A stretch of 64,000 nt of DNA from a virus, in IMG/VR virus record IMGVR_UViG_3300009788_000006, positions 1 through 64,000 of that record; one strand, given 5' to 3'. Positions 3,614 through 60,763 of the stretch are shown one piece after another. Under the pieces are notes generated by a model. It made no database searches, was not told the origin of the DNA, and was given only the letters and a program-made list of their open reading frames with translations. Numbering within the stretch: the stretch's first letter is position 1; each line of letters begins with the position of its first letter. Position numbers and translations under genes: made by a program.

Positions 3614-4888
3614 ATGGCAGAACCGAAAACTTTGGAAGAGGCGGTCGAGCTTCAGAACAAGGCGTTCGACGAGTTCAAGCTCGCCGACAAGAAACGAGAC
3701 GACGAGATCAAGGCGCTCGGCAAAGCCAACGGCGAGACGCTTGAGCGCCTTGCGAAGACCGAAGCGGATCTCGAAAAGTCCGACGACGCGCTGAACAAGA
3801 TTCAGGCCGAGCTCGGCGCTTTTGCCGCGATGAAGGAAGAGCTCGAAACCAAGCTCCAGAAGTTCGAGCGCTCAGGGTCGCCGAAGGACGAACCCGTCAC
3901 CTTCGAGGATCAGTACGCCGACGCGTACCAGAAGTGGATGCGTGGCGGCGGTGAGAAGATGCGCGGTCGCTGGAAGATGACGGCCGAGGATCTCGAGATT
4001 CTTGAGCGCGGCGCGGAAGAGAAGTCCCTTTCGACCGACAGCGGTGAAGATGGCGGGTATGCAATGCCGGCCCCGCAGCGAATGGCGATGATCGAGAAGC
4101 TGATTGAGTTCAGCCCAATCGAGGAGCTGGCCAACATCGAAGTGATCTCAATCGGGGATTCCGCCGAGGTTTTGGCAGACGGAGTGCAGGATTTCGCCTG
4201 CGAGTGGGTCTCTGAGAGAGAGAGTCGGGGCGAAACCGCGGCGGCTCAGCTGCGCAGAGTACTCATCACGGCGCACGAGATTTACGCGAACCCGTTCATC
4301 ACCCGCAAGGCGCTGGACGACCCTGCAACGGATTTGGCAGCGTGGATCAATCGCCGCCTCTCGAAGAGGTTTGCCGTCAAAACCGGGACCGCCTATGCAA
4401 TTGGCAGTGGTGACGGGCAGCCCGGCGGCATCGCCACCAACACGGCCGCACAGACAGACTCGGTGGTCTCAGGCCACGCCTCGCAACTCACCGGCGATGG
4501 TCTTATCGACCTCTACTACGACCTCCCTGAGATCTATGCGCGGGCCGCTACTTGGGTCCTTCGCCGAGCCACCCTGCGAGATATCCGCAAGCTGAAGGCG
4601 TCTGGCACCGGCGAGTATCTCTTCACGCCAGCCACTACCGCCACCCCGCCGGCCATCCTGGAGCGTCCGTATCGCGAAGCGCTCGACATGCCCGCGGTCA
4701 GCGCTGGCACCTACCCGATCGCCTTTGGCGACATTGAGGCCGCGTACACCGTGGCACGGCGGCAGGATGTATTCCAGATCCGCGACGCGCTGACCAATAA
4801 GCCGTTTGTCGGGTTCTACACCACGCTGCGCCGCGGCGGCGAGGTTGTGTTGGTCGAAGCGTACCGGCTTCAGAAGATCTCGACGTAA
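3614..4888 (+). CDS. HK97-fold major capsid protein
   Basis: coiled-coil delta domain, EDGGYAMP, WVSE, GSGDGQPGGI, IAFGD, KPFVGFYTTLRRGG motifs. Confidence 0.95.
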   Translation: MAEPKTLEEAVELQNKAFDEFKLADKKRDDEIKALGKANGETLERLAKTEADLEKSDDALNKIQAELGAFAAMKEELETKLQKFERSGSPKDEPVTFEDQYADAYQKWMRGGGEKMRGRWKMTAEDLEILERGAEEKSLSTDSGEDGGYAMPAPQRMAMIEKLIEFSPIEELANIEVISIGDSAEVLADGVQDFACEWVSERESRGETAAAQLRRVLITAHEIYANPFITRKALDDPATDLAAWINRRLSKRFAVKTGTAYAIGSGDGQPGGIATNTAAQTDSVVSGHASQLTGDGLIDLYYDLPEIYARAATWVLRRATLRDIRKLKASGTGEYLFTPATTATPPAILERPYREALDMPAVSAGTYPIAFGDIEAAYTVARRQDVFQIRDALTNKPFVGFYTTLRRGGEVVLVEAYRLQKIST

Positions 4889-12620: not shown

Positions 12621-15600
12621 GTGGCTGTCGTAGAGTTCCCTATCCACGTCCCGATCATCCCCAAGACCGGGAAGTACGATGCGGCGATGGCTCGCGTCAG
12701 GGGGCAGTCCAAGAAGACAGAGTCGTCTCTCCGTTCCCTCAAGGGTGTAGCTGGCACCTTATTCGCTGGGTTTACGGTTGCTGCTGTAATTAGCCAGCTG
12801 GGCTTGGCTTCTGCCGCATTTGCGGACTTTGAATTCCGCATGGCCGGGGTCCGAGCTGTTACAAGAGCTCTGCCGGAAGATATGCAGAAGCTCGAGCAGC
12901 AATCGCGAGAGCTCGGACGATCAACGATTTTCACTGCCACGCAGGTTGCGGAAGCCCAGGAGAATCTTGCTAGAGCGGGGTTCGACGTTGCGGAGAATCT
13001 TGCGTCTCTGCCCGCGGTTCTCGATCTTGCGACCTCGAGCGAATTAGGCATGGCGCGGGCAGCTGATATCTCAGCTGGCGCTCTGCGGGGGTTCCAGCTT
13101 GAGGCGTCGCAGATGGGAGACGTCATCGATGTCATGGCGGTCGCTGCCGCCGACAGCAATCAGCGAATCGAAGATATGGGCGAAGCTCTGAAGTTTGCGG
13201 CGCCTGCTGCTCAAGGGCTTGGTATTTCTTTTCGAGACACCACGGCCGCTCTTGAAGTGCTCGCCGACAACATGCTTCGCGGAACGCTCGGTGGAACCGG
13301 TCTGCGGATGTCTTTGCTTTCATTGATTGATCCTACAGGTAAGGCCGCGGGGGTTCTTGACGAGCTTGGTGTATCCGCTGAAGAATTCACAGACACGTTA
13401 AAAGAGGACGGACTGATCGAGGCTCTGAGCCTGTTGAGCAGCGAGACAACAGGGGTCAAGGAGGCTATCCAGATCGCTGGAGCTCGTGGCGGTACTGCGC
13501 TGCAAATCCTGCTGACCAATCTCGATCGCCTTGCCGAGAAGCGCGCTGGCCTCGAAGGTATTACCGGCGCCTCTCGCGAGATGGCCGAGATCAAGATGGA
13601 CACTGCGACGGGCAGTTTCAAAGAGCTTGAGTCGGCGATTGAATCAGCTCGAATTGAGCTTGGCGCCACTATGGCGCCAGCGCTTCGAGAAACTTCTGTT
13701 GAGCTCAAAGCAATAGCGAGAGTCACGGAAGAATGGATCGTTGCCAATCGCGACATCCTCAGAGACCTGATCCAGGTCACTGGATGGACGGTAAAGCTTG
13801 CGGCAGCGTTGGTGTCGGTGCCGATCAAGATCTTTGCTGATGTTCTTGAGCTTGCCGGAGCGATCGGCGAAAGAATTTCCAACCTCGGCGCGGCCGGCGC
13901 TGACATCAGTGGATTGACACAAGGCGCTGAAGAGTTGGCGGCCGCTTATCGCGAGACGGTAAAGGCGATCAAAAGTCAGGACGAGGCGATCATTCAGTCG
14001 AGGGCGGGGGAGCTCTCGGCACAGATTCGCGCGCTGGCGGAGGAATGGGAGACCATTTCGCAAAACATTAGGATCTATGAAGATGACCTCGACGATCTGC
14101 GTAGCACTGAAGGTGCTACGGCCGAGCAGATCGAAGAAAGCGTTACTGCTTTGCGCGCCCAGGCTGTCGCCCTGCGGTTGAATGAACGGGAGTCCGCGGA
14201 GCTCGACAAAATGCTAGCGCTGCTGTTCGAGAGCCTGAACGATCTTGGGGCGGCCGGTAAAGAGATGGGCAAGGGTATTGAAGATGGGGCCGATGCTCCA
14301 GCTATGAGCATCGACGCCTTGCGGAGCCGCATTATTGCACTGCGTCAAGCGATCATCGATTTCGGCTCCACTGAAGTTCAGACCGAGCTGATTGGAGATG
14401 CCGCGCTGCCGTTCGACCCGCGCAAGATGGTCTTCGCTATGAATGCCGCGTTCGATGATCTTGAAATCGATCAAGATGTCTTTTTGCCAACACAGGCGAC
14501 GATGGATCAGCTCGGGGCGCAACTTGAGCAGATGTACCGGAAATCGGGCGAGGAATTGGCGCCAATTTTCCAGCGAGCGGTGGCTGGGCTGGCGCCGATC
14601 CTTGGCGATCTTTTCGGCGGAGACACCGGCGGGCTGGTTGCTGGCATCGAATCGATATTTGGAACCGGTGGCGCTCTTGATGAGCTTCGCATTGCTCGCC
14701 AAGCATTGACCGACATTGAGGCGGCAGGCGTGCCGACTCAAGAGGAATTGGCCCAAGCGCTCGACCGTGTGGATGTTGCTAGCAAGCGTACCGCGGCTGC
14801 CTTTGCTTCCTTGGTCAGTTCATTGGCCAGTTCGTTGCAAGGCTCCACTGGCCAGCAAACCACCGGGGTTCTCGGAGGTCAAAGCGAGGGCACCTTCTCG
14901 GCAGAGGGCGCCGACATCGGCCAAGCGATCGGCGGACTTTTCGGTCCGTGGTGGGGAGTTTTCGGGCAGGTGGTCGGGGGCATCATCGGCGATTTTATCA
15001 AGAAAGGTGCCGACGACGCGGCTGCCGAGCTGCGGTTGATTGACGGCGAGCTCGACGCCAACGTGTTGAATGTTGAAGGCGGGCTCATCGATAGCTTCGG
15101 GCCTTTCGTCGATGCCTTTGCCGACGCGATCAACCAAACCTTGGACATGATCGGAGCGACGCTGGAAACCCTGCCAGCCAATTTTAACATCGAGATTCGA
15201 AGTGGGCAGTGGATCGCGGTGTGGGGTCGAATGTTCGACGCTACGGAAGAAGGCATCCAGGACGCGCTGTCCTTCGCGGTGATTCAACTTTTGACGCAAG
15301 GCGATGTCACCGGTATCGAGCCAGAGGTGAGGCAGGCGTTGACCAGCTTTGTCGGCAACACGCTCGAAGGATTTCAGGAGACGCTTGCTCTTGCCTTGCG
15401 CCTAGTCGACGATCGGCTCGGCCCGGAGGCGGTCCAGATCCGCGACTCTCTCATAGGGATTTTCGCCGACATTCAGGCCGGGTTGAGCGCCGGGATTAGC
15501 GTCGCGGGCGTCACCGAAGGCATCGACGTTTCCGGCGCCTTCGCCGCTTTAGGCCGAACCCGAGACGAGCTCCTCGGCATTGTGCAATCAGAGGAAGAGA

Positions 15601-17600
15601 TCGCCGGTATCAGAATCGACGCGTTCAACGCTCAAATCAGGGTCCAGATGGCACAGCTCGAGGTGATGCTGGCCGAGACTCTTGTTCGCGAGGCTAGCGC
15701 TCAGCAGGTGACAGTCTTTTCGCGCACACAGCTCGATGCGGTAGAGACAGGGGTCCTCCTGATCGACACCCTGTCCGGAGTCACGACGGAAATGGGCACT
15801 ATGGCGGGCGTTGCTCAGACCACACTTGAAGTGATGGAGGCGGCGACCTCTGGGGCAGTCGAGGCGATCCAGGCGGCCCTAGCAGACCTCGAAGGGCTCT
15901 TGATTTCTGACGCCGAGCGGGCGCAGGGTGTCAGGCGCGCCGGGCGCGGGCCGTCCGGGCCATCACCGGACGCTATCCGTGCGGCTCAAAGAGAGCTGGA
16001 GCTGCTTGCGGCGCGAGCAGCGGGGAATGACCAACTGCTAGAGGATCTCCGGGAGCAGTTCGCGATCCAGGATCAGATTCGGAATATTACTGAAGTGCTC
16101 GGCGCCGAGGCTGGCGAATTGGCCCGCGCGCTCATTGAGACCGCGGCGGCCATGGCCGAGGTCCGCGCCGAAACTGAATTGAGGGAGGAGCGTCAGCGGA
16201 CACTCGCCGAGACTACTGCCGAGCTCGCGGAAAGGATGTCCGATCTTGCGGGGTCATTCGACCAGCAGTTCTCGGCTCTTGGCCCATTCGAACAGGCCAC
16301 TGACATTCTGGGCCAGGCCCAGCAGAACATCATTGATTTGGGGCTGAACGTCGGCCAGCTCCAGCTTGAGGCCGCGCTTTTTGGCGGCAGCACTGACGAT
16401 TTGACAGCGGGCCTGGCTGCTCTTGCGCAAGCCCAGGATCAATACAACGACCTGCTTGAGGAGGCTGATGTCTTCCTGCGCAGAGCTGCGACCACGAGCC
16501 TTCTAGATCTCGGCATCTTTCTCGCCGAGGGCATCGGCGACGCCGAGAGGCTTGCCGAGCTTCAGGCCCAGCAGAGCCGGATGGAGCTCCAACTCAAGCG
16601 GCTCGAATTCGAGCTGCTGGTGGAGCAGCTCCGGATCTTCGGTCTGCTCGACGACGAGCTCCAGGGCCTTGTGGATGACATCAATTCGATGTTCGATACC
16701 GCCTTCGAGCTCGGTGACGAGTTCGGCAACCTTGGCAATGAAATCAACAACGCGGCCGGGGCCTTTTCATCCGCCGCGTCGATCATCCTCACCGGCGCCG
16801 ATCTCTGGGCGCAGCAGCTCGCGCAAGGCCAGGCGCTTCTTGATCGTATCCAGCAGGGTCTGTTAGCGCAGCAATCGCCGTTCGCGCGCATCGTGGCCGA
16901 GATGCAAGCGCTCCGCGACGAGGCGATGGAGATCACGGCCGCGGTCTTCATGACCTTGGGGACCAATCTCGCGGACGTGCTCGCGGATATCGATCTGCTC
17001 GAGCAAATGGAGCTCGACGCCGAATTCCAGCGTTTGACGGGTTCGTTGCAGGACTTCTTCCGATCCTTGACTGAGGGGCCGCTCTCTGGTCTCTCACAGC
17101 GTGACCAGGCTGCGGCGGCACAAGCCAGGGTCGAAGAGCTGCTAAGGCTGGCCGCGGGCGGCGAGGGCATCACCCAGCTCCAGCAAGAGGAGGCCATCGC
17201 CGTGCTTGCGGCTGAAGGGCAGAACCTGCTGGCGCTGGCCGGCGGGGTGCTCGGCGCCGGCGGCATCGGCGCGCTAACTCAGCAACTCATCGAGGCCATC
17301 AGCGGCATCCTCGGCGACGGCTTCCCGTTCGGTGGTGGCGGTGGCCCTCTTGGTCCCGGACCCCCGGGAATCCCAGGGCTTCCGGGGGGACCGCTCGGCG
17401 GCGGTGCTCCAGGGGGCGGGCCGCGTGGTGGTGGTGGGCCACTTAGCCCTGGTTCCCCGTTCAGCAGTGACGTGGCGCTCAATATCGCGTCAGCGGCCGG
17501 CGCCCAGAGATCTACGACGAATAGCCTGCTGAGGTCGATCGAGACTGAGCTGATCGAGCTCAACGGCGGGGTGGTCCAGCCGCCGCAGATTGCCCCTTGA
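12621..17600 (+). CDS. tail tape measure protein (TP901-type core)
   Basis: 1659 aa helical; TIFTATQVAEAQENLARAGF, LPAVLDLA, MGEALKFAAP, GTLGGTGLR motifs. Confidence 0.95.
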   Translation: MAVVEFPIHVPIIPKTGKYDAAMARVRGQSKKTESSLRSLKGVAGTLFAGFTVAAVISQLGLASAAFADFEFRMAGVRAVTRALPEDMQKLEQQSRELGRSTIFTATQVAEAQENLARAGFDVAENLASLPAVLDLATSSELGMARAADISAGALRGFQLEASQMGDVIDVMAVAAADSNQRIEDMGEALKFAAPAAQGLGISFRDTTAALEVLADNMLRGTLGGTGLRMSLLSLIDPTGKAAGVLDELGVSAEEFTDTLKEDGLIEALSLLSSETTGVKEAIQIAGARGGTALQILLTNLDRLAEKRAGLEGITGASREMAEIKMDTATGSFKELESAIESARIELGATMAPALRETSVELKAIARVTEEWIVANRDILRDLIQVTGWTVKLAAALVSVPIKIFADVLELAGAIGERISNLGAAGADISGLTQGAEELAAAYRETVKAIKSQDEAIIQSRAGELSAQIRALAEEWETISQNIRIYEDDLDDLRSTEGATAEQIEESVTALRAQAVALRLNERESAELDKMLALLFESLNDLGAAGKEMGKGIEDGADAPAMSIDALRSRIIALRQAIIDFGSTEVQTELIGDAALPFDPRKMVFAMNAAFDDLEIDQDVFLPTQATMDQLGAQLEQMYRKSGEELAPIFQRAVAGLAPILGDLFGGDTGGLVAGIESIFGTGGALDELRIARQALTDIEAAGVPTQEELAQALDRVDVASKRTAAAFASLVSSLASSLQGSTGQQTTGVLGGQSEGTFSAEGADIGQAIGGLFGPWWGVFGQVVGGIIGDFIKKGADDAAAELRLIDGELDANVLNVEGGLIDSFGPFVDAFADAINQTLDMIGATLETLPANFNIEIRSGQWIAVWGRMFDATEEGIQDALSFAVIQLLTQGDVTGIEPEVRQALTSFVGNTLEGFQETLALALRLVDDRLGPEAVQIRDSLIGIFADIQAGLSAGISVAGVTEGIDVSGAFAALGRTRDELLGIVQSEEEIAGIRIDAFNAQIRVQMAQLEVMLAETLVREASAQQVTVFSRTQLDAVETGVLLIDTLSGVTTEMGTMAGVAQTTLEVMEAATSGAVEAIQAALADLEGLLISDAERAQGVRRAGRGPSGPSPDAIRAAQRELELLAARAAGNDQLLEDLREQFAIQDQIRNITEVLGAEAGELARALIETAAAMAEVRAETELREERQRTLAETTAELAERMSDLAGSFDQQFSALGPFEQATDILGQAQQNIIDLGLNVGQLQLEAALFGGSTDDLTAGLAALAQAQDQYNDLLEEADVFLRRAATTSLLDLGIFLAEGIGDAERLAELQAQQSRMELQLKRLEFELLVEQLRIFGLLDDELQGLVDDINSMFDTAFELGDEFGNLGNEINNAAGAFSSAASIILTGADLWAQQLAQGQALLDRIQQGLLAQQSPFARIVAEMQALRDEAMEITAAVFMTLGTNLADVLADIDLLEQMELDAEFQRLTGSLQDFFRSLTEGPLSGLSQRDQAAAAQARVEELLRLAAGGEGITQLQQEEAIAVLAAEGQNLLALAGGVLGAGGIGALTQQLIEAISGILGDGFPFGGGGGPLGPGPPGIPGLPGGPLGGGAPGGGPRGGGGPLSPGSPFSSDVALNIASAAGAQRSTTNSLLRSIETELIELNGGVVQPPQIAP

Positions 17601-28096: not shown

Positions 28097-28414
28097 TTAC
28101 TTGTGGCGCGCCGCGGTGGTCATCGGCAACCGGAGCCCGACTCCCTTGCGCTTGTTCCAGATGGCTTTGGCCGCTCCACCGAGGTGCTCAATCGCCTTGT
28201 GTAGCGCGGCAGCGAACGCGCCAAGGAAAAGCGCCAGAGCCGGCGTCACGTTGTCGGCGCCGACCTGGACAAGCATCCAGTTCGCGACCAGCCCGAGCAA
28301 CGGGAGCACGACGGGAACCATCAGCGCTTTTGGGACTTTGCCGACGGCCCAGATCATGATCCAGGCGAGCACGGTGGTCAGACCGGGGATCAGTAACAGA
28401 TTGACCTGTTCCAT
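28097..28414 (-). CDS. three-TM membrane protein (holin-like)
   Basis: GAGG RBS; three hydrophobic segments, basic C-terminus. Confidence 0.7.
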   Translation of the reverse strand: MEQVNLLLIPGLTTVLAWIMIWAVGKVPKALMVPVVLPLLGLVANWMLVQVGADNVTPALALFLGAFAAALHKAIEHLGGAAKAIWNKRKGVGLRLPMTTAARHK

Positions 28415-28429
28415 TTTTTCACCTCAGAA

Positions 28430-29000
28430 GGTTAAAGCGGCTCCGGTCCACCAGCACGCCCCCGACACAACGCCGAGAGCTTCGCGGTCCATCTGAATCC
28501 AGAGCCGTCAACCAGGAGCCGGAGGAGGAACCCGCTACGACCAAGCGAGACACAACCGATGCGGATACTCCGGCCCCTGGTTCAGGGCTCGGCAATTGCA
28601 GGGAGTAGAGCCGCCAGCTGCAAGCCGGGGCGACAGGCGCCAGCCGTCGCACCATCCGACTGAGCCGGGAAGGTCTCCGGCTTGCAGCTCATGGCTCTGG
28701 TCTCGAATCTCTCGCAGCCCCCGAGGGACTTATGCACGGAATCGCCAGCTAACCTTAGACCAGCCGTTACCGATCTACTCTTCGCTGAACACGCCCCTCG
28801 ATTCCCCACCATGCTAACCGGGGCGGCCGGCTTCTCAACCGTGCCGGGGCCTGCCAAAGATTCGAGAATCCGGCTTCTCGAGGACTTCATGACAGCGACC
28901 CCTGGCTCAGCCAGGATTATGCGATCGGCCACGCCGACGTTACTCGCCATTCGTCCGGTCAAGATTGAGCTTTTGCTCCGGGGCCGGTCTCCGGAATTCC
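28430..29000 (-). ncRNA. candidate large structured ncRNA B (~570 nt)
   Basis: no credible ORF; stems 28616-28628/28677-28689 (13 bp perfect), 28510-28524/28568-28582, hairpins 28862-28881, 28901-28915, 28967-28978. Confidence 0.6.
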
Positions 29001-29003
29001 AGA

Positions 29004-29180
29004 CTATCGAAACGCCCCGAGAGGCGTGAAATCCTCCCACCGGTTCCGGTACGGGCTGTTCGGCGGATAGTCGCCGCTGATCTTTCGCGCATAGGCCGAT
29101 CTGCGACCAGGGGCGCTCATCGCGCGCTCCTTGGCGGCCTTCCGTTTTGCTCTTTCCTTCAAACGTTTCTCGCTCTTCAT
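29004..29180 (-). CDS. 58-aa Lys/Arg-rich peptide
   Basis: AAGGGAG RBS; MKSEKRLKERAKRKAAKERAMSAPGRRSAYARK...; absent from ORF track. Confidence 0.65.
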   Translation of the reverse strand: MKSEKRLKERAKRKAAKERAMSAPGRRSAYARKISGDYPPNSPYRNRWEDFTPLGAFR

Positions 29181-29189
29181 GCTGTCTCC

Positions 29190-29940
29190 CTTGGGGATTG
29201 CCGGCCCGTGCTACCGTAGCGGGCCAGCGGTGGGTCGGTTGGGAAGGAGTCACGCCCCTGGTAGCTCGGAGCGGTGAGAAGGCGAGGCCAGGCCCTTGGG
29301 GTCGCGCCTGGAAAACTACCAGGTCTCGGCGGGTCAACGAAACCGCGTGCAAGCCGCAGCAGCGAGGCACCGGATCGATCACTATGGGTAGCTCGCCGAG
29401 GTTGGGCTCGCACACTATCGCCGATGCTTGCGTCGACGATATGCCGGTCGCCCTTTCGCTTGGCGTTGCCGCCAGGCGCGCGCCCAAAGGCCCGCTATTT
29501 AGCTGGCGCTCCAGGAGGCCGCCGCCAACCCTCTCGACCGGAACGGCTGAGAGAGCACATTGCCGACGGCGGTCTGCTGCAACGTCAGAATAGTGACGGG
29601 ATTGCACCGCCCCGCGGTCTCTCACCGCTTGGCCTGGGTTACGACCAGTCCCACGGACACCTCCATCTACGTGCCGCGCGGATAAGGCGCCGTCAGCCCC
29701 GCGCGTACGCCGACCATTGCTCCACCAGGGCGATTTGCCGCTGTCGGTCCTGGTTTCATCGCCTTCACAACGGGCCGCCAGCCTACCGGAGCTTACGCTT
29801 GATCGGTGGTCTCCTCCGGCTCTACCACTCAGCAATGCCAGGCTGTACGGCGACCCTTTCACGCAATGACGCTCCACGCGACCGCCGCTGGCAGGGAGGC
29901 TTTTCCCATGCAATCCGCGGCGGTCGCGTGCAACGTCAGT
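29190..29940 (-). ncRNA. candidate large structured ncRNA A (~750 nt)
   Basis: near-continuous stems; several closed by GNRA loops on the minus strand (GUAA, GAGA, GCAA); 22-bp stem 29867-29888/29917-29938. Confidence 0.7.
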
Positions 29941-30150
29941 CATGCCGCCGCCCAATCGATTGGATTCGTGCGGGCTGGTGTGTAGGCTCCAGTCTAGCGA
30001 CCCCTCGCTCCCACAGGGAACGTCGCAAGCCTCCCAGTCAGCCTCGGGGCTTTCGAAGGTACAAGTCTTGCCGAGGTCCGGCGGTGACCCATCAAGTGCC
30101 GCTATTCCGTCGACGCGAATCACGGCCGCTACGTGTGTCCAGATACTCAC
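29940..30150 (-). pseudogene. N-terminal part of a phage protein (WTHV...PCGSEGSL) running into the structured region
   Basis: first ~65 aa protein-like and coupled by GTGA; the rest of the 522-aa ORF is low-quality R/G/S/P sequence. Confidence 0.45.
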
Positions 30151-30488
30151 GGGTCAACTTCTTCATCTGGTTCTGGGGCAGGCCCGAGAACACTGACTCG
30201 GTCGCCGGGCTTCAGCACGCACTCAGGGCATGGAATCAACGTATCGAATTGGCGATCCGGATCCCGGACGATGAATAAGAAACCGCACTGAGGACACTTC
30301 TTCTTTCTTGTGGGCCGCTGCGGGAATTCGGCGCGCGTCTCCCACCCCAGATCCGCAATCACGAGCCCCCGGACGTAGGCCGAGAACGTCATCTCTCTGA
30401 CCCGGGCCTCTCTCTGTGCATTGCGCAGAATACCGCTCGGCATACTGACGCTGGTCTTGACCGCGGGTCCGTTGGGGTTCGTCGCCAT
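30147..30488 (-). CDS. ribbon-helix-helix regulator with C-terminal zinc ribbon, leaderless
   Basis: KTSVSMP...MTFSAYVRGLV; CPQC...CPEC; TTGACA at 30520-30525. Confidence 0.75.
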   Translation of the reverse strand: MATNPNGPAVKTSVSMPSGILRNAQREARVREMTFSAYVRGLVIADLGWETRAEFPQRPTRKKKCPQCGFLFIVRDPDRQFDTLIPCPECVLKPGDRVSVLGPAPEPDEEVDP

Positions 30489-30577
30489 GCCCTGTATCTT
30501 TTCACACCGCGGGCCGGGGTGTCAAGAACTATTTTCACACCTTCGCCCGTTCTGCCCGTGTGCTACCATCGCCACCC

Positions 30578-31018
30578 ATGGCGGACGATCCCATCCAGAT
30601 AGCACTCCTCGAAGAAGTCAGGAAGCTCATCGAAGCAAAGTTCGCGGCGTCCCAGGCCGCCTCGGAAGCGGCAGTGGAAGCTTCCGAGAACGCTACGACC
30701 GCCGTGGCCGTGATGGGCAAGCAAATCCAAGGCGAGCTCCACGAGCTATCAGACCGGCTTCTGGAGCTTCTCGCGATGATCCGGGAAGACAGGGCACGGG
30801 AGGGAGCGTCAGCTTCGGGTATCGAGGCCATCGCGACTGCCTTCAAAGCCGCCGGCGCCGACCGCGAGAGAATCGGCAAGATCGAAGGCCGCCTCGACGG
30901 CGAGACGCTCCGCTTAGACGGACGCATCGGCAAGCAAGCGATACAGTTGGTAATCATCTGGGGCTTTATCGTCATCTTGGGGCTCAGGGTAGCTGCCGAA
31001 ATCCTGGGAATTCCCTAA
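30578..31018 (+). CDS. coiled-coil protein with C-terminal TM
   Basis: TGC-TACCAT 8 nt before ATG; C-terminal LVIIWGFIVILG. Confidence 0.65.
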   Translation: MADDPIQIALLEEVRKLIEAKFAASQAASEAAVEASENATTAVAVMGKQIQGELHELSDRLLELLAMIREDRAREGASASGIEAIATAFKAAGADRERIGKIEGRLDGETLRLDGRIGKQAIQLVIIWGFIVILGLRVAAEILGIP

Positions 31019-32208: not shown

Positions 32209-32284
32209 GCTCCGATAGCTCAGCCGGAAGAGCGGCTGCCTCGTAAGCAGCGGGTCGGCGGTTCGAATCCGTCTCGGAGCTCCA
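32209..32284 (+). tRNA. trnT: tRNA-Thr(CGT)
   Basis: full cloverleaf GCTCCGA/TCGGAGC, anticodon arm GCTGC-CTCGTAA-GCAGC, TTCGAAT loop, encoded CCA. Confidence 0.95.
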
Positions 32285-34020: not shown

Positions 34021-35034
34021 CTATCCGGCTGCCGTTTCCCAGATGTCACACTGTCGGTTCTCATCATCGACGAACTTGTTCTCAGCAGCAGCCTGGACGT
34101 AGATTTCCGACTGGTCGTAATAGCCCGGCTTGAGCTCCCAACCCATCCCGATGCGACCGAGAGATACCGCAGAATATGGCACGGAGCCAACACCGTGAAA
34201 CGGGTCAACCACGATCTCCCCAGGGTTGGTTTTCAACTGGATGGCGCGCTCGCACACGTCGAGCGGAAGCGGGTGCGGGTGAGCCGGGCTGGCGCCGCTG
34301 AAGGTCTCATCGTCCGGATCGGTGTATTTCGGCAGGCAGCGATCATAGCGGATATCTCTCCAGTCTCCGGCCGCGTACCTCTGCCAGATCCATTGTGAGT
34401 AATCATTGTAGATCTGGTTGCCTTCCATGCCCTGGCGAGCCAGAAGCTCGGCGGGAATCTTCTCTGACCCTGAATAGTTGAGCAACCCGGTAGGATGTTC
34501 GACTGGCACCGGATTCTCTCCGGGTTTCCGGAATACTAGCACCTGGTCGCACACAGCGACGCCAGCCGCTGCGCTGTCCTCGCAAAGGTTCTTGTGGAAT
34601 AGAGCCTTGACCATCGTGGCGTTACGGACGACAAGGGCGTTGCGCCAGATGACATGTCGGCCGCCGTAGATCCATCCGACCCGTTGATATAAGCGGATGA
34701 TGTCGCCGGGAAAGTCAGTGTACGTGTCGGCTCCGCTATTATCGTTGACGATGTCGCAGCAGTGTGGCATAGACACGCGGCCCGGCATAGTGATCCGGAA
34801 CATCTCCTGAACAAAATACTCGAAGTGCTCAAAGAACTCCTTGTAGTTGGCTGAGTTAGAGAGGTCCCGCGGATCACTGCCGTAGTGATACAGTGCGCCC
34901 CGCCCCTCGCTGGCGAACGGTGAAGAGTAATGAGTGAAATGGACGGACTTGTCTGGAAGGTCTTTCATGCCCTCAACAGCGTCGCCGCAGTAAAGGGCGA
35001 ACTTGTCAGTGACGAGCTGCTTTGCTACAGCCAT
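34021..35034 (-). CDS. amino-DNA methyltransferase (N4-C/N6-A, beta class)
   Basis: motif IV-like YSSPF, HPHPLP, motif I VVDPFHGVGS, GWELK. Confidence 0.9.
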   Translation of the reverse strand: MAVAKQLVTDKFALYCGDAVEGMKDLPDKSVHFTHYSSPFASEGRGALYHYGSDPRDLSNSANYKEFFEHFEYFVQEMFRITMPGRVSMPHCCDIVNDNSGADTYTDFPGDIIRLYQRVGWIYGGRHVIWRNALVVRNATMVKALFHKNLCEDSAAAGVAVCDQVLVFRKPGENPVPVEHPTGLLNYSGSEKIPAELLARQGMEGNQIYNDYSQWIWQRYAAGDWRDIRYDRCLPKYTDPDDETFSGASPAHPHPLPLDVCERAIQLKTNPGEIVVDPFHGVGSVPYSAVSLGRIGMGWELKPGYYDQSEIYVQAAAENKFVDDENRQCDIWETAAG

Positions 35035-36488
35035 GCCGGAACCTCCATTCCCTGGGTGTAAATGTCTGGTTGACTGACGCCCTCGGCGTCGTTCATATAA
35101 CCGACCAGCTTTCCGAACATGTAATCGGCGCGCTTCTGCTTTGCGAGAAGATTGGACAGAACTCGCGACTCCCCGGAGGTGGTGATCAGGTCCACGATGA
35201 CCTCATGCGCCTGACCGAAGCGCCAACATCTGCGGATCGCCTGGTACCACGCCTCGAAGGAATTCATGGCGCCGAGGAAAACCATCCGGTGACAGTTCTG
35301 AAGATTGAGCCCCCACGCGCAGATTTTCGGCTTGGTGATCAGGACGCGGATCTCTCCGTGCTCAAATGCCAGGATCGCCGCTTCCTTCTGGATGTGGATG
35401 TCACCCTTTGGAGCTCGCCATGCAACCGTGCTTCCATACCGAACCGCCTGGCCGGCTACTTCGACAGCGCCAGGAATTACCTGGACAAGGTGTTCTCCTT
35501 CGGGGTTCAGCTCGCACCAGATGATCGCCTGCTCTTTGTGGTCGGTGAGCTCGGCCGCCTTATCGCACCGTGCCACCATTGTTGTGCGGCGCTCCGCCCG
35601 TTGCTCACTCACCCCGCGGGCTTGGGGTGGAATAAGCAAACGCTGGCCGTCCCCATCGATCAAGGGCTTTTCACACTTGACGCCGTGCTCTCGCTGTATC
35701 AGTCCTGGCAGCTCATAGAGGTGGTCTTCATGCGGAAATCCGAGTTCGCCAGGCTTGCGGGCGCTCCGCGACCAGCTCGAAACGAATTTCCAGAACGGCT
35801 CTTCGGCGTGACCGCGAAAGCGCCACCCTTGAGCGTGCATGTCGGCTCTGCCGCTGTGCCGTTGTCCCTTTGACCATCGCGCGATTGTCGGCCCGTCGAC
35901 TTGTCGGAAGAAGCGTTCCTTGACCTGATCTTCGCGCAGTCGCCCCAGCGCCTCAGAGAAAGTGCCGAGCTCGATAAACGCGTTTGGCGCCGGCGTCCCG
36001 CTGTAGAGCGATCGATACCGGACCCGGTTCATCATTCTTTGGATTAGGCGGCGTGTCTTACCGATCACGTTCTTGAGGACGGATCCTTCATCGATCAGAA
36101 TGCCGACGAATGCGCTGGCGTCGAAGTGCTGGAGACGCTGGAAGTTCGTGACCACCACGCGGGGGCCTGGCGGGTACTTGCCGTCGATAGAGCGGACCGC
36201 GTCAATGCCGAACTTCTCGGCCTCAAGAATCGTTTGGTGCGAAACGGCGAAAGGCGTTGCCAACAAAACAGGTTTGTTCGTGTGTCTTACGACATTATCC
36301 CCGACTGTGAGTTGTATTGCGCTCTTGCCCAAACCACATTCTATCAGGTTCGCCGCGCACCCCTCGGCGAGTGTCCACTCGACTAGATGATTCTGGAAGT
36401 CATAGAGGCAGTCCGGCATCCAGTAAGGGGCGAACCCGTCACCGGCCGGCAGTTGCAACTTGCGGGCTACGAAGTCCCGATAGCTCAT
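35025..36488 (-). CDS. SNF2-like SF2 helicase
   Basis: CGLGKS, LIDEGS, SGTPAPN, GLNLQ, QAIRRCWRFGQ. Confidence 0.9.
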   Translation of the reverse strand: MSYRDFVARKLQLPAGDGFAPYWMPDCLYDFQNHLVEWTLAEGCAANLIECGLGKSAIQLTVGDNVVRHTNKPVLLATPFAVSHQTILEAEKFGIDAVRSIDGKYPPGPRVVVTNFQRLQHFDASAFVGILIDEGSVLKNVIGKTRRLIQRMMNRVRYRSLYSGTPAPNAFIELGTFSEALGRLREDQVKERFFRQVDGPTIARWSKGQRHSGRADMHAQGWRFRGHAEEPFWKFVSSWSRSARKPGELGFPHEDHLYELPGLIQREHGVKCEKPLIDGDGQRLLIPPQARGVSEQRAERRTTMVARCDKAAELTDHKEQAIIWCELNPEGEHLVQVIPGAVEVAGQAVRYGSTVAWRAPKGDIHIQKEAAILAFEHGEIRVLITKPKICAWGLNLQNCHRMVFLGAMNSFEAWYQAIRRCWRFGQAHEVIVDLITTSGESRVLSNLLAKQKRADYMFGKLVGYMNDAEGVSQPDIYTQGMEVPAWL

Positions 36489-38817: not shown

Positions 38818-38923
38818 GTGGCCCTTATTCTCGCCTACCAAGACTCGAAGCATGGCTGCCGGCGGTTTCGGGTGAGTTGTCAAAGGGTTCTTTCTCGGTC
38901 GCCTATTAGAACTTGCAAACCCT

Positions 38924-39137
38924 ATGCCAGAATTATGAACACAGCCCCATGAAAGGTTGGTGGGCCTTAAACGTAAGCATGTCACCACTTACGCCGAATG
39001 CCGCCGGGCCAGAGGCCCGGGCCGCTGACCCGGAATGTCCAGAATTCCGTACATTGTATCCACAATTCTGGACACGGGCCGATAAGCGCTTACGGGTCAA
39101 CACTTACGAGCCCTTGATTTGTTCAGAATTCTGGATC
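38924..39137. promoter_or_regulatory. array of four operator-like 18-bp palindromes
   Basis: consensus TGTCCAGAATTCTGGACA; copies at 38924 (13/18), 39036 (16/18), 39057 (16/18), 39120 (15/18). Confidence 0.75.
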
Positions 39138-39337
39138 AGAGGTGAGTCGAGCGCGCGGAGTAGGTTGAGCACGGCCACGGCCGATCCGAGGTTGTCGCCC
39201 TGCTCCCAGGCCCACAGCCTGGTGCGGACGATGTCCAGGTCAACGGCAGCGGCCTTAGAGCTGCGCCCCGTCGCTTGTCGTAGGCTGCGGATGTGGGCGC
39301 CGAGGTCCTTGGGAGTGATGTCGTGGTGTGTTTTCAT
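39104..39337 (-). CDS. XRE/Cro-like HTH regulator
   Basis: LGAHIRSLRQATGRS...AAVDLDI.RT.LWAWEQG. Confidence 0.8.
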   Translation of the reverse strand: MKTHHDITPKDLGAHIRSLRQATGRSSKAAAVDLDIVRTRLWAWEQGDNLGSAVAVLNLLRALDSPLIQNSEQIKGS

Positions 39338-39380
39338 GGTCTCAGGTGATTGCAAACCGCGTGCCGCGGACGAAAGTCCA

Positions 39381-39659
39381 TCATTCATCGCGACCACGGA
39401 AACCGAACACCGAATCGGCGCCGACCAGCTCCTGCGGCGAGCCCAGCCTCGCCTCCAGATATTCGTGAGCACGGCAGAATGTTGCACCCCTCATTGGGCG
39501 GCAGCGACACTGCCTCAGAGTCCAACTCATTTCAAAGCCGCTCGGCGTCCTACCGGTCCTACGCAAGCAATCACGCTCCGCGACCTCGGCCGGACAGAAT
39601 CCCTCTTTCGGGTTATCTACACTGCTACAGGCGGACTCATATGGACCATAGATGCCCAT
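39381..39659 (-). CDS. small Cys-containing protein
   Basis: TGATG coupling; QCRCRP...FCRAH. Confidence 0.5.
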   Translation of the reverse strand: MGIYGPYESACSSVDNPKEGFCPAEVAERDCLRRTGRTPSGFEMSWTLRQCRCRPMRGATFCRAHEYLEARLGSPQELVGADSVFGFRGRDE

Positions 39660-39973
39660 CAGAGCTCCCTCGGCGGCTCTGGCCGCCGCGCCTCGGCCAG
39701 CGTCAGTGGCACGGAGAGCACGGAAGCTTTCCGCCGACACATCTCGGTGAACATCGCGTCGAAGAGACCGCCGGGAAGATGGGTAGCAAGGGCGTCAACA
39801 ACCTCGGCCGCTTTGCCATGATAGGCACCGCGAGCGAAATCCCCCGGGCGGTCCCCCTGCCACAGATCCGGATCGGGGACTTCTTCGTCGAAGCGCAAGA
39901 TCAGGTTCGCGGGCTCAGGGTCGCCGGGGAGCTGCTGGGCTTTCCAGCTATGTAGCTCGTGAGTCTCGGTCAT
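39659..39973 (-). CDS. hypothetical protein
   Basis: AAGGAG RBS. Confidence 0.65.
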   Translation of the reverse strand: MTETHELHSWKAQQLPGDPEPANLILRFDEEVPDPDLWQGDRPGDFARGAYHGKAAEVVDALATHLPGGLFDAMFTEMCRRKASVLSVPLTLAEARRPEPPREL

Positions 39974-40451: not shown

Positions 40452-40813
40452 CAGACTACCGCCTCCGCTGCAACTTTCCCGCACTCTTCCTGGAGTGCAG
40501 AGATCCTGCCGAGCAGCTCGCGAACGTCTGTAACGGCCACCCCGAGGCGGCGCTCGATGTCCTCTCGCCACTCCCTGACGGCCTCGGGGTCTAATGGTCT
40601 CGGTGCGTGTCCGCGGCCGTGGCAGTCCTCACAGAGAGTCTCGAGCAGTCGCGGCGGCGTATCCCATGGATCTGAGCCGACGTAGCTTCGGTGGTGGACA
40701 TGCAGCGTCTTGTCCTCAGCCCCACACTGCCGGCATTTCCACTCGTCCCGGCTCATGACTTCGAGGCGGACCCGTTGCCACCTGGGATCGAGAAGCTTGT
40801 CGGCGTAGGTCAC
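40451..40813 (-). CDS. HNH endonuclease-like protein
   Basis: LLDPRWQRVR...RDEWKCRQC...LHVHH...LETLCEDCH. Confidence 0.85.
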   Translation of the reverse strand: MTYADKLLDPRWQRVRLEVMSRDEWKCRQCGAEDKTLHVHHRSYVGSDPWDTPPRLLETLCEDCHGRGHAPRPLDPEAVREWREDIERRLGVAVTDVRELLGRISALQEECGKVAAEAVV

Positions 40814-42129
40814 TGTCTCGGCTCCGGCTGCCGGGCGACATCTGCGAACCTCATCAGCTCTCCGATCCATCCTACGTGGCACGTTCCGGCCGGCACGCCG
40901 TCTCGATTCTTCCGGATGATAATTTCGGCAACTCCGGGATCTTCAGACTCGTCGACCACTGAGGTGATGAACGTCATCAGAACGACATCTGCATCCTGGC
41001 CAACCGCGCCGCTGTATTTGAGATGGACCAGTAGCGGCCGATCCGCCTTCTGCCCTTCGTTGGCCAGCTGGTGGAGAAGGACCACGGCCACGTCGAGCTC
41101 TTTGGCGGCCAGCTTGCAACGGCGGGCAATCCGGGAGATTCGAATCTCTTGATTTTCCTTCGGGTCGCTGGTCTCGATCAGGCTCAGATAGTCGATCGCC
41201 AGCACCTGTATCTCTCGCTCAGCCTTGAGCCGGCGAGCCCTGGCGATGATAGCGTCGATCGTCTGAATCGGAGTGTAATCGACCCAGAGCGGCATATTCA
41301 TCAGCGTATTCCGAGCCGCGTCGATCCGCTGGCGCTGATCGGCCGACAGCTGCGCTGTCTGGATCGACCGGTGAGGGATTCCGGTGACCTGAGACAATAG
41401 GCGTCCGGTGATCTGAGCTCTAGACATCTCGAGCGACACCATCGCGCACGGGTGGCCGGCGAGCGCCGCGGCGCGGAGCATTCCGAGCGCCAGCGATGTC
41501 TTGCCGTGACCGGTGATGCCGCCGATGACGTAGAGATGGCCGGGCAGTAGGCCGATGATCTCTTCGTCGAGGGCGTGGATGCCGGTAGAGATCCCGACCC
41601 TCTCTTCGGGTCCGCGGTCCAGCCTCAAGTCCTCGAAGCCGTCGGCCGCGTGGACATACTCGAAGCTTCGCGCGTCGGTCTCCAGATCGAGGAGCTCGGC
41701 GCCAGCCCTTCCGATCGTCTCCGATACGTCCGTACCGTTCTGGGCCGCGGCCGCAAGCCGGGAGCCCATTTCGATCAACTGCCGGCGGCGCCATCGGTCG
41801 AGGATGATCGTAGCGTAGCGCTCGAGCCCGCCGAGGTCGGGGAGGTCGAGATCAAGCCCGGCGAGGTAGGCCAAGCCGCCCACCTCTTCGAATTTCCCCG
41901 CGCGCTCGATCTCGGCTTGCAGTGTCCGGAGGTCGATGCCGCGGGCGCCCTCGGCATGCTCGACCCAGATATCCCACATTGCTCGCCAGATGATCTTGTG
42001 GCGGTTGGTGTAGAAGTGGCGCTCATCGAGATGGCCGGCGGCGATCGAGATATCTTCTGGGCGCAGAAGACAGCAGGCGAGCACGGCGCGCTCCGCCTCT
42101 TCGGCGTGGGGTAAGGATTCGGGATTCAT
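40810..42129 (-). CDS. dnaB: DnaB-like replicative helicase
   Basis: PHAEEAERAVL, GITGHGKT, SLEM, IDYL, SGAVGQDAD, IIRKNRDG. Confidence 0.95.
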   Translation of the reverse strand: MNPESLPHAEEAERAVLACCLLRPEDISIAAGHLDERHFYTNRHKIIWRAMWDIWVEHAEGARGIDLRTLQAEIERAGKFEEVGGLAYLAGLDLDLPDLGGLERYATIILDRWRRRQLIEMGSRLAAAAQNGTDVSETIGRAGAELLDLETDARSFEYVHAADGFEDLRLDRGPEERVGISTGIHALDEEIIGLLPGHLYVIGGITGHGKTSLALGMLRAAALAGHPCAMVSLEMSRAQITGRLLSQVTGIPHRSIQTAQLSADQRQRIDAARNTLMNMPLWVDYTPIQTIDAIIARARRLKAEREIQVLAIDYLSLIETSDPKENQEIRISRIARRCKLAAKELDVAVVLLHQLANEGQKADRPLLVHLKYSGAVGQDADVVLMTFITSVVDESEDPGVAEIIIRKNRDGVPAGTCHVGWIGELMRFADVARQPEPRQ

Positions 42130-57643: not shown

Positions 57644-57752
57644 CGCTCACCACTACCAGAGGCCCCGGCTCGGTGACTCGGCGTGGGTCCTGGCGGGATT
57701 CTGGGGTCTGCGGGGGTCTTGGCAAGGCCGAGGCCCCTGATGGTGGTGAGCG
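57644..57752 (-). repeat. intergenic 26-bp inverted repeat / long RNA stem
   Basis: 57644-57669 vs 57727-57752, 22/26; three of the four differences are G-U pairs on the minus strand. Confidence 0.8.
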
Positions 57753-58882: not shown

Positions 58883-59151
58883 AGAGCATCCGAGACATCC
58901 TCCGGCCGGCCGCCTTGGCCGAACTCAACCGCGACGGTCGCCGGCATCGTCTCGCCCGCATCTGGCGCGAGTACCACGGCCTCACCAACGAGGAGGCCGC
59001 AGCGATCTGCGGCGTGGAGCCCTACAGCTTCAGCCGCTTTGGGACCCACCGACAGCGACCGGAAGCGGGGCGGCTGGTGGCCAAGGGGATCGGGCTCGAC
59101 AGCAGCACCCGGCCGTGGAAGGCGGCGGTCGCTGGCACCATCCTAGCGTAG
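58879..59151 (+). CDS. XRE-like HTH protein
   Basis: WREYHGLTNEEAAAICGVEPYSFSRF...RP. Confidence 0.7.
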   Translation: MKSIRDILRPAALAELNRDGRRHRLARIWREYHGLTNEEAAAICGVEPYSFSRFGTHRQRPEAGRLVAKGIGLDSSTRPWKAAVAGTILA

Positions 59152-59207
59152 CTCAGACGGCAGAGCGCTCGGAGAGGTCGCGGGTTCGAGCCCCGCCGGA
59201 CCTACCA
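59142..59207 (+). other. tRNA-like element lacking anticodon loop and 5' acceptor strand
   Basis: TAGCTCAGACGGCAGAGC D-arm, GCGGG-TTCGAGC-CCCGC T-arm, ACCA end. Confidence 0.65.
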
Positions 59208-60515: not shown

Positions 60516-60592
60516 TGGTGGCCCCGGCGGGATTCGAACCCGCAATAACCGGATTTTGAGGCCGGCGCCTTTTCCGTTTAGACCACGGAGCC
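60516..60592 (-). tRNA. trnL: tRNA-Leu(CAA), short variable arm
   Basis: GGCTCCG/CGGGGCC acceptor, loop CTCAAAA (31-39 C/T mismatch), TTCGAAT, ACCA. Confidence 0.85.
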
Positions 60593-60594
60593 AT

Positions 60595-60682
60595 TGGTGC
60601 CAGGGGTAGGATTCGAACCTACGATGGGATCTTTCGAGACCGGATTTACAGTCCGGCGCTTTCACCGCTCGGCCACCCTGGC
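60595..60682 (-). tRNA. trnY: tRNA-Tyr(GTA)
   Basis: GCCAGGG/CCCTGGC, CCGGA-CTGTAAA-TCCGG, long variable arm, ACCA. Confidence 0.9.
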
Positions 60683-60688
60683 TGAAGT

Positions 60689-60763
60689 TGGTAGACCCCT
60701 TCGGATTCGAACCGAAAATCTTCAGATCCTAAATCTGACCGTTGCCATTTAGCCTAGAGGTCC
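60689..60763 (-). tRNA. trnL: tRNA-Leu(TAG), short variable arm
   Basis: GGACCTC/GGGGTCT, TCAGA-TTTAGGA-TCTGA, TTCGAAT, ACCA. Confidence 0.85.

Follow-up and report, generated by a model that had tools for sequence, protein, structure and literature searches.

Block A, positions 29190-29940 on the minus strand of the 64-kb stretch of phage DNA analysed here (the window), is read as a cis-acting, hairpin-rich segment of an early polycistronic transcript, possibly translated through and carrying stems of the RNase III type, and not as a free-standing ornate RNA. We put the probability of this reading at about 40%. The locus carries long, partly repeated hairpins with an excess of folding stability; it lies in a long open frame that has no coding bias, and relatives are absent from the collections searched.

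The window covers the first 64 kb of the complete 82-kb genome of a tailed phage from a subsurface metagenome. Block A lies inside a 1.73-kb stretch (28415-30146) in which normal coding signal is absent, and from 18 to 47 kb the neighbouring genes are all on the minus strand. By eye, the 113-aa product of the upstream gene appears to have a ribbon-helix-helix-like N-terminus and two CxxC pairs; among 1.84e9 representative proteins it matched only itself, together with one weak zinc-ribbon match. GC by codon position in the downstream 105-aa gene is 0.66/0.42/0.81. Replication genes are located 5-13 kb from the locus, and no iterons, AT-rich stretch or recombinase were found near it. A scan of the 64 kb at Rfam gathering thresholds returned five tRNAs and nothing else, the nearest tRNA gene being about 2.3 kb away. 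The features of the locus are collected in Table 1.

Table 1. Features of the locus and its flanking genes (positions are those of the window)
Feature	Position	Strand	Remarks
Upstream gene, 113 aa	30147..30488	-	Faces plus-strand gene at 30560
Stop-free frame, 523 codons	28582..30153	-	First start GTG at 30150
P1a, long hairpin	29867..29938	-	7 bp + G.G mismatch + 14 bp, small apical stem-loop
Segment between hairpins	29589..29866	-	Contains small stems 29772-29856, 29724-29754, 29610-29650
P1b, related second copy	29504..29588	-	-43.9 kcal/mol, z -2.66, 1/200 shuffles as good
Segment after P1b	29190..29503	-	Predicted long-range closing helix; CCUGGUAGU/GCUACCAGG complementarity
GGGGCGUG motif	29251..29258, 28790-28797, 28455-28462	-	Three different reading frames
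Putative Lys/Arg-rich ORF, 58 aa	29004..29180	-	AAGGGAGA 5 nt before ATG; out of frame with the long frame
B1, long stem with branched tip	28607..28698	-	6+1+13 bp; inverted repeat I7
B2, long stem	28502..28590	-	5+1+15+6 bp
Downstream gene, 105 aa	28097..28414	-	Clear coding signal; positive codon-usage score

Long hairpins and the folding of the locus

The coordinates and letters that the first-pass annotation gave for block A were correct, and its minus strand folds better than shuffles, as had been claimed: the minimum is -375 kcal/mol (z -6.23, 20 shuffles) on the minus strand and -355.5 kcal/mol (z -3.39, 20 shuffles) on the plus strand. When four 300-nt windows of the minus strand were folded separately, z was -1.94 (29191-29490), -2.92, -1.61 and -2.37, compared with a baseline for the sense strand of confident genes (105 windows) of mean -0.69, sd 1.19 and minimum -4.03. 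The folding excess of block A is real but modest, and its source is mostly the two long hairpins P1a and P1b. With P1 set aside, the advantage of the block over ordinary genes of this phage is only about 1 sd, which counts against our reading. As to the strand signal that had been noticed, blocks A and B both fold better on the minus strand than on the plus strand; at 29401-29601 the difference amounts to -19 to -23 kcal/mol, less than 2 sd of the window-wide spread (sd 12.8).

What had been described as a 22-bp stem is P1a, which has 21 pairs and one G.G mismatch. It folds at -53.4 kcal/mol (z -7.87, with none of 200 shuffles as good) and is the fifth-longest inverted repeat (I5) of the window. 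P1b, which the first-pass annotation had not noticed, lies downstream of it at a spacing of 351 nt, the arm gaps being 52 and 64 nt. The two copies have the G.G mismatch in common, as well as the base CUGACGUUGCA / UGGAGCG(U/C)CA and, further in, GACCGCCG/CGGCGG; the apical part of P1b differs and is 12 nt longer. A model built on P1a alone picked out P1b as the sole other site in 64 kb (25.6 bits, E 1.2e-4), and a model built from both copies found these two sites only in the 82-kb genome. Of the three longest inverted repeats with separated arms in the 64 kb, two fall in the locus. Over the 21 aligned pairs, counted by eye, there are two double compensatory changes and one compatible change, with the G.G shared; against the two compensatory changes stand three stem changes that break pairs (two A.C and one C.C), and these count against our reading. 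Similarity does not extend beyond P1: a global alignment of the segment between the hairpins with the segment after P1b gave z 0.95, a score as high being reached by 105 of 500 shuffles. The flanking segments are thus not significantly similar, and a pair of tandem homologous RNAs was ruled out beyond P1.

The nested and small stems of block A were located where the first-pass annotation had put them, but most are individually no better than shuffles: 14 of 200 shuffles were as good for 29772-29856 (z -1.52), 18 of 200 for 29724-29754 (z -1.37) and 15 of 200 for the region 29610-29650 (z -1.46). The segment after P1b also contains a GCAA hairpin (29461-29474) and a hairpin with an 8-nt loop (29412-29444), and reaches as far as the ribosome-binding site that precedes the 58-aa ORF. 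A switch or pseudoknot had been suggested within this segment. CCUGGUAGU (29315-29323) and GCUACCAGG (29257-29265) can indeed form nine pairs, but complementarity of this extent is at chance level and lends a switch no support; 48 of 200 shuffles do as well as the local fold around the two (z -0.58).

Further long stems are found in block B, whose minus strand has z -4.5 as a whole. None of 200 shuffles folded as well as B1 (-59.1 kcal/mol, z -4.80) or B2 (-49.6 kcal/mol, z -5.36), and the windows at 28401-28701 are the most structured among 638 windows of the 64 kb. The 8-mer GGGGCGUG occurs in three copies only in the 82-kb genome, both strands considered, and all three are on the minus strand of the locus (Poisson 2.6e-8 for the clustering, over 1671 8-mers tested). 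The putative 58-aa peptide has no homologue and no match to a family of the Pfam or PHROG type. Its ORF is small but well formed, has a ribosome-binding site to itself and overlaps the long one in another frame, which counts against our reading.

The claim that a high density of GNRA loops points to tertiary packing did not survive. Only two of the five listed loops are tetraloops closed directly by a stem, namely UGGCG-GCAA-CGCCA (29461-29474) and AGC-GUAA-GCU (around 29796); in the remaining three, the GNRA letters lie within loops of 7 nt (UCGUAAC), 5 nt (GAGAG) and 8 nt. On the minus strand of block A the strict GNRA hairpins number two, compared with a mean of 1.42 in dinucleotide shuffles, 413 of 1000 of which reach two, and with a window-wide mean of 1.54 per 751 nt. 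Because strict GNRA hairpins are at chance level, tertiary packing inferred from their density is unsupported. The likeness to ribozymes or to GOLLD/ROOL-type RNAs fared no better, since even at E up to 10 the locus matched no Rfam family, the ribozymes, group I and II introns, GOLLD and ROOL included; the best matches of this permissive scan of 28400-30600 scored 10-19 bits, against gathering scores of 48-90. Nothing seen here marks the locus as a large ornate RNA like the ribozymes or GOLLD and ROOL. Neither GNRA letters in loops nor a favourable minimum free energy in GC-rich DNA is more than weak evidence, and open frames deserve checking before a stretch is called RNA.

A rival reading, which takes up the first-pass comparison with GOLLD/ROOL, makes the locus a large structured non-coding RNA that stands by itself, or two such RNAs in tandem, acting in trans, perhaps together with the 58-aa basic peptide; it would be a new class of ornate RNA or RNP. 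Consistent with this are the lack of a normal gene over 1.7 kb of a compact phage genome, the folding of the minus strand in block A (z -6.2) and block B with its most structured windows, the restriction of GGGGCGUG to the locus, and the position of the basic-peptide gene between the two blocks. The GOLLD and ROOL families, which are associated with phages and tRNAs, offer a precedent. Several results speak against it. The two units are dissimilar outside P1, the small stems are individually not significant, and Rfam matches and an excess of GNRA hairpins are lacking as described above. No minus-strand terminator-like site (GC-rich stem plus U tract) was found in 28415-30146, the single such site found being inside the 105-aa gene, and no promoter and terminator pair bounds an RNA. 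Finally, the viral, metagenome and genome collections and 401 genomes of one candidate host class yielded no relative, and so there is no covariation; the stop-free frame is left unexplained as well. We regard a free-standing RNA as quite improbable. The same search, which found no convincing promoter or U-tract terminator bounding a discrete RNA at the locus, also counts against our own reading.

The 523-codon stop-free frame

Block A lies wholly within the 523-codon stop-free frame, which the first-pass annotation had also passed over. The GTG start of this frame overlaps the TGA of the upstream gene (GTGA), and the frame opens two codons before the GTG. The minus-strand frames contain 27, 23 and 2 stop codons, and among 2000 dinucleotide shuffles of the locus none reached 523 codons (maximum 501). 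A possible explanation is that the frame is a true protein gene, namely a fast-evolving ORFan encoding a disordered Gly/Ala/Arg/Ser-rich product, with the hairpins as features of its mRNA. The length of the frame and its tie to the upstream gene through the GTGA overlap would fit this, as would the enrichment of G at codon position 1 (0.40) and a triplet periodicity that is weak and in phase with the frame (chi2 20.9; 5 of 2000 shuffles reach it, p about 0.0025). In addition, the spacing of the P1 copies and their difference in length are both multiples of 3, and the gene callers of three sources annotate the frame as a gene.

The content of the frame argues otherwise. Its codon usage is random-like (chi2 68 on 60 df, compared with 148-260 in real genes) and equals the dinucleotide expectation, with an in-frame excess chi2 of 0.016 per codon, where genes that match a family or have clear coding signal reach 0.17-0.51. 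GC by codon position is 0.66/0.60/0.65, the value of 0.60 at position 2 speaking against a gene, and Cys, His and Trp in the product are at the levels of random translation. From 28440 to 30120 no frame has a positive codon-usage score. Searches of Pfam, PHROG and the ESM Atlas gave no match to the product, which among 5.8e9 protein clusters retrieved only itself, the three cluster members being identical. The motif GGGGCGUG recurs in three different frames, and the one listed variant (29226) is non-synonymous (W to R in our own reading) yet turns a U.G pair into C-G. The frame thus starts in a gene-like context and has neither codon or amino-acid bias nor homologues. A protein gene is unlikely on this evidence.

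Random-like codon content in all frames and the lack of relatives would also be expected of non-functional or decaying DNA, that is, a dead gene or recent filler in which the hairpins are roleless small palindromic insertions or duplications. One DNA run, which may come from the source sample, yielded two short low-depth contigs of a variant beside the source contig. One low-depth contig from the same sample appears to lack 28700-29193 (494 nt) and to have 15 other letters instead, a hint at most, since the joint has 24 letters on one side, placed at 85% likeness, and may be spurious. The genome also has four other random-like open frames of 251-337 codons, one of which (29265-30278, plus strand) overlaps the locus; these make the 523-codon frame less singular than the local shuffle test suggests. 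On the other hand, phage genomes rarely retain 1.7 kb of filler, and a stop-free frame that starts exactly at the upstream stop argues for constraint. P1a and P1b have moreover retained a stem of 22 positions with the same mismatch. The GC content of 0.65 at all codon positions is below the value of about 0.75 at third positions of real genes, which suggests that the locus is not at neutral equilibrium. Decay seems improbable to us.

Relatives and comparison with known elements

Searches of viral, metagenome and genome collections found no relatives of the locus, blastn against phages and plasmids gave no match, and within its own 82-kb genome the locus matched only itself. The pattern CTGACGTTGCANNNNGACCGCCG had no loci in viral contigs and 13 in genome contigs, none of them P1-like by fold. 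One of these 13 (L126) carries its own unrelated 360-nt duplication. When the gap between the two P1 bases was allowed to vary, the loci numbered 31 in the metagenome, 1 in the viral and 16 in the genome collection, none with a long hairpin or similarity to the phage. Among the neighbour proteins, those of 113, 105 and 634 aa had no viral relative; a helicase query returned 80 loci at up to 49% identity, in which the helicase and a methylase were the only genes in common and P1 was not found. Compared with 401 genomes of one candidate host class, the locus DNA gave matches of 21-50 nt only. The best of them (29 nt, 97%) falls within an ordinary gene; the similarity extends no further, and a CRISPR array is absent. 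The P1 model had no match in 151 genomes of that class. Other candidates were rejected on sequence or on general criteria: a CRISPR spacer, an integron attC site, a telomere site, a replication origin and a TIGR array. A riboswitch was likewise rejected, the c-di-GMP-II match scoring 19 bits against a gathering score of 47.9.

The arms of P1 might instead act at the DNA level, as half-sites for protein binding or as single-strand hairpins in replication or recombination. Of the four occurrences of the consensus TGACG(T/C)T(G/C)CA in the genome, three are in P1 arms. The P1a model also hits P1a on the plus strand (46.3 bits), and a gene for what we read as a ribbon-helix-helix-like regulator adjoins. 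However, the half-sites are 52-64 nt apart and the intervening letters are also complementary, with two compensatory changes, and the minus strand outscores the plus strand for both copies of P1. The lack of iterons, AT-rich stretch and recombinase nearby and the distance of the replication genes speak against it too, and we consider such a role very improbable.

Small palindromic repeats inside reading frames or transcripts are known from the palindromic elements of Rickettsia and the Correia elements of Neisseria. P1 resembles them as an imperfect palindrome of 70-90 nt with conserved ends, present in more than one copy and in frame with the ORF (spacing and length difference as above). It differs in having two copies only, both in the phage, with none in the 151 host-class genomes or in the pattern scans of the three collections.

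The antitermination RNAs of phages, lambda N/boxB and HK022 put, may also offer likenesses; the loops of boxB end in A, and a lambda-type nut site combines boxB, with its GNRA-like pentaloop, with a boxA and an upstream N gene. As in those systems, the repeated RNA hairpins would follow directly on the first gene of an early operon, and a putative small arginine/lysine-rich peptide gene is nearby. The hairpin GCGGU-GAGAG-ACCGC (29614-29628) has a 5-bp stem and a pentaloop as in boxB, but the pentaloop ends in G; the peptide gene is downstream of the hairpins, not upstream, and the P1 stems are far longer.

GOLLD and ROOL are described as large RNAs in excerpts of 10.1101/2024.12.08.627333. The locus shares with them its large size, the phage setting and a tRNA gene at the distance given above, and differs in having no Rfam match at E up to 10, no GNRA enrichment and no relatives in which a conserved architecture could be seen.

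A close parallel is with RNase III signals. In lambda, the sib and N-leader sites are RNase III processing signals. Excerpts of PMC3867540 give an idealised E. coli RNase III substrate as 22 bp, or two helical turns, and state that mismatches or internal loops confine cleavage to a single strand and leave 3' ends that are stabilising. The same excerpts place five RNase III signals in the T7 early precursor of roughly 7000 nt. In the predicted folds, P1a (21 pairs plus the G.G), B1 (20 pairs) and B2 (at least 21 pairs) come to about the 22 bp of that description. Like the T7 early and lambda signals, the stems would have about two helical turns of dsRNA broken by a mismatch or internal loop, and related sequences would be repeated along one early transcript, between cistrons. 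Unlike them, the stems here, as known from predicted folds, are longer and more GC-rich, with large or branched tips, two of the four share sequence, and they lie inside an open frame and not between clear genes.

Proposed role in an early transcript

On our preferred reading, the 1.73-kb segment would be part of a leftward (minus-strand) early polycistronic transcript, lying after a small regulator-like gene and before the next gene with a clear coding signal, and would be transcribed from the divergent promoter region. P1a, P1b, B1 and B2 would each provide about two turns of dsRNA with a mismatch or small internal loop. These stems may act in cis, either as elements for processing or stability that resemble RNase III substrates or as pause sites for ribosomes or polymerase. 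Cleavage or pausing there would govern when, and how strongly, the downstream genes are expressed in comparison with the regulator gene. Ribosomes probably read the segment too, at about even odds. In favour of this are the stop-free length that no shuffle attained, the opening of the frame at the upstream stop and the weak periodicity in phase with it. Nothing selects the amino acids of the 523-codon frame, though the frame is stop-free nearly to the next gene. Hairpins of -44 to -59 kcal/mol would be unusual obstacles in a translated frame, and this counts against the reading.

A bolder variant is that the frame has been kept stop-free without selection on its product. Ribosomes would be carried from the regulator gene over 1.6 kb of hairpin-rich spacer, and translation itself would be the function, shielding the transcript from polarity or decay while the stems serve as timers. 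Alternatively, the stretch and the 58-aa basic peptide could form a new phage RNA-protein module. We hold these to be quite improbable.

If the stems of the cis-acting segment are processing or pause signals, early-operon control of the T7/lambda type would be found in an uncultured, high-GC subsurface lineage that lacks sequence relatives. Should the stop-free, random-like frame prove to be truly maintained, nature would offer a clean example of selection that acts on translation and not on the protein.

Setting of the locus

The full record (82,021 bp, with terminal repeats and rated complete in IMG/VR), of which bases 1-64000 are considered here, is that of a tailed phage whose genes between about 18 and 47 kb lie on the minus strand. 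Within this leftward segment, a gap of 1.73 kb separates a 113-aa gene from a 105-aa gene, and block A, the region of the proposed RNA, lies inside it (see table). The 113-aa gene (30147-30488, minus) faces a plus-strand gene (30560-31018) across about 70 bp, an arrangement resembling that of a divergent early control region.

In no frame of the gap was a positive codon-usage score obtained, the score being trained on 13 confident genes of the phage, and its ORFs were without a Pfam or PHROG family match. When 28400-30600 was compared with Rfam at E up to 10, the best match scored 19 bits, where the gathering score is 48. Across the whole window Rfam gave five tRNA genes only (at 32209-32281, 59145-59204 and 60519-60763), the nearest about 2.3 kb from the locus. 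Between block A and block B, its neighbour at 28415-29003, there is a Lys/Arg-rich ORF of 58 aa with a good ribosome-binding site, for which a search found no relatives. Genome-wide, the 8-mer GGGGCGUG has three copies; all are on the minus strand of the locus, each in a different frame (Poisson 2.6e-8, with 1671 8-mers tested).

Table. Features of the locus and of the phage genome (window positions unless marked)
Feature	Position	Strand	Remarks
Capsid gene	3614-4888	+	
Tape-measure gene	12621-17600	+	
105-aa gene downstream of gap	28414 down to 28097	-	clearly coding
B2 stem, block B	28502-28590	-	-49.6 kcal/mol, z -5.36
B1 stem, block B	28607-28698	-	-59.1 kcal/mol, z -4.80
Block A	29190-29940	-	inside gap 28415-30146
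P1b	29504-29588	-	related copy of P1a hairpin
P1a	29867-29938	-	21 pairs + G.G mismatch, -53.4 kcal/mol, z -7.87
113-aa gene upstream of gap	30488 down to 30147	-	ribbon-helix-helix-like N-terminus, two CxxC pairs (by eye)
DNA methylase	34021-35034	-	
Second helicase	35025-36488	-	
Random-like frame	38910-39821	+	codon content as random-like as the long frame
DnaB helicase	40810-42129	-	
Random-like frame	61330-62085	+	as above
Random-like frame	71459-72376 (genome)	-	as above

Long hairpins and folding strength

The 22-bp stem reported by the first-pass annotation (P1a) is real and outstanding, as none of 200 shuffles folded as well. Self-comparison gave two direct matches, which are both arms of this stem found again 351-363 nt downstream, where they form P1b. 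The two hairpins have in common the base CUGACGUUGCA / UGGAGCG(U/C)CA, the G.G mismatch and an inner GACCGCCG/CGGCGG; their tips differ, that of P1b being 12 nt longer. With P1a as its only input, a covariance model recovered P1b at 25.6 bits (E ~1e-4) as the sole other site in 64 kb, reverse-strand echoes aside, and a model from both copies gave no further site in the 82-kb genome. Among the 21 aligned pairs, counted by eye, two changes are double compensatory, one is compatible and three are disruptive (two A.C and one C.C), besides the shared G.G. These changes suggest a hairpin, short of proof. With P1 excluded, the two units are dissimilar (z 0.95 in global alignment, a score that 105 of 500 shuffles equal or exceed, and z -0.7 in local alignment). 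Therefore, a tandem pair of homologous RNAs is ruled out beyond P1 and reduces to a repeated hairpin.

On the minus strand, no part of the 64 kb is more over-structured than block B, which has two stems of at least 20 bp and folds at -291.8 kcal/mol (z -4.5) on the minus and -236.1 kcal/mol (z -2.6) on the plus strand. Two of the three longest separated-arm inverted repeats of the window fall in the locus; the longest, at 57644-57752 (26-nt arms, 85% complementary, 57 nt apart), lies outside it.

Block A as a whole gave -375 kcal/mol (z -6.23) on the minus strand and -355.5 kcal/mol (z -3.39) on the plus strand, with 20 shuffles each. As controls, 105 random 300-nt windows from the sense strand of confident genes of the same genome were folded (mean z -0.69, sd 1.19, minimum -4.03). 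Four windows of block A scored -1.94, -2.92, -1.61 and -2.37, and three of block B -3.84, -4.16 and -4.21; after GC regression over 638 minus-strand windows, those of block B were the most structured and those of block A ranked 9th to 25th. The minus-plus energy difference of block A is below 2 sd of the window-wide spread and is matched by ordinary genes. From these controls and this spread it follows that block A is only modestly over-structured, mostly owing to its long hairpins.

The letters, coordinates and stems first described in block A are correct, but the GNRA richness is not borne out. Of the five listed loops, only two are stem-closed tetraloops; in the remaining three the GNRA letters merely sit within loops of 7, 5 and 8 nt. 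Two strict GNRA hairpins are a chance number: the shuffle mean is 1.42, at least two occur in 413 of 1000 shuffles, and the window as a whole averages 1.54 per 751 nt. Thus a GNRA-packed ornate RNA is unsupported, though the stems exist. The other named stems are present, each with z of only -1.4 to -1.5, and the two best small hairpins are at 29412-29444 (z -2.6) and 29455-29480 (z -2.2). The nine pairs of the proposed alternative pairing exist, but the local fold has z -0.58.

A stop-free frame across the locus

One minus frame runs without stops from 30153 to 28585 (523 codons, the long frame), while the other two contain 27 and 23 stops. It begins two codons ahead of a GTG overlapping the TGA of the upstream gene. 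In dinucleotide shuffles of the locus, scored in six frames, 0 of 2000 reached 523 codons (maximum 501; 99.9th percentile 414). A weak triplet periodicity is correctly phased, with G at 0.40 in codon position 1; its chi2 of 20.9 was equalled or exceeded in 5 of 2000 shuffles, and its strength is at most about a quarter of that in real genes. The in-frame sense codons fit the dinucleotide model (chi2 68 on 60 df), whereas four comparison genes of 439-741 codons gave 148-260. GC by codon position is 0.66/0.60/0.65, and the amino acids occur as in a random translation of GC-rich sequence. The genome has four more random-like open frames (251-337 codons), one lying on the plus strand and overlapping the locus; such frames thus have a fatter tail than a simple model would suggest. 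The three elsewhere (251-305 codons) could be small-gene shadows or additional atypical regions. Translation of the long frame is given near even odds.

Relatives of the stretch and overall reading

No relative of the stretch was found by blastn in phage and plasmid records, in 80 phage loci with a shared helicase, or in the genomes of one candidate host class (sets of 401 and 151). Pattern scans of IMG/VR, JGI metagenomes and species genomes gave matches none of which formed the hairpin. Among 5.8e9 protein clusters the long-frame translation had three identical members only, and the 113-aa protein had no relative among 1.84e9 representative proteins. A 29-nt match (29714-29742, 97% identical) lies within an ordinary protein gene of a candidate-host-class genome (G079, L147, 1501-1529); with neither wider similarity nor a CRISPR array around it, it was taken as chance. 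Another chance match, an Acetobacteraceae MAG contig, carries its own 360-nt duplication (1-360 and 740-1096, 89% identity), in which a hairpin of ~90 nt follows a small ORF on the minus strand; it is unrelated to the phage.

A single public run, a subsurface metagenome that may be the source sample, contains the stretch. Its contigs include a 284-nt variant at 3x depth with five differences from 29194-29264; the one listed, at 29226, turns a U.G pair into C-G and would change W to R in the long frame. After 29194 come 15 other letters and then 28699-28676, which hints weakly, the flank being only 24 letters, at a variant phage without 494 nt (28700-29193) and so without the 58-aa ORF and the beginning of block B. 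This apparent loss is not a multiple of 3.

In their predicted folds, the long hairpins have a size similar to that of RNase III signals and likewise contain a mismatch, judged by the criteria in PMC3867540. Taken together, the firm findings are several long hairpins, of which two are related copies, and an unexplained stop-free frame, all within a part of a leftward operon that is atypical and orphan. Most economically, the hairpins would act in cis as dsRNA elements of a polycistronic early transcript, with ribosomes possibly reading through the hairpin segment.
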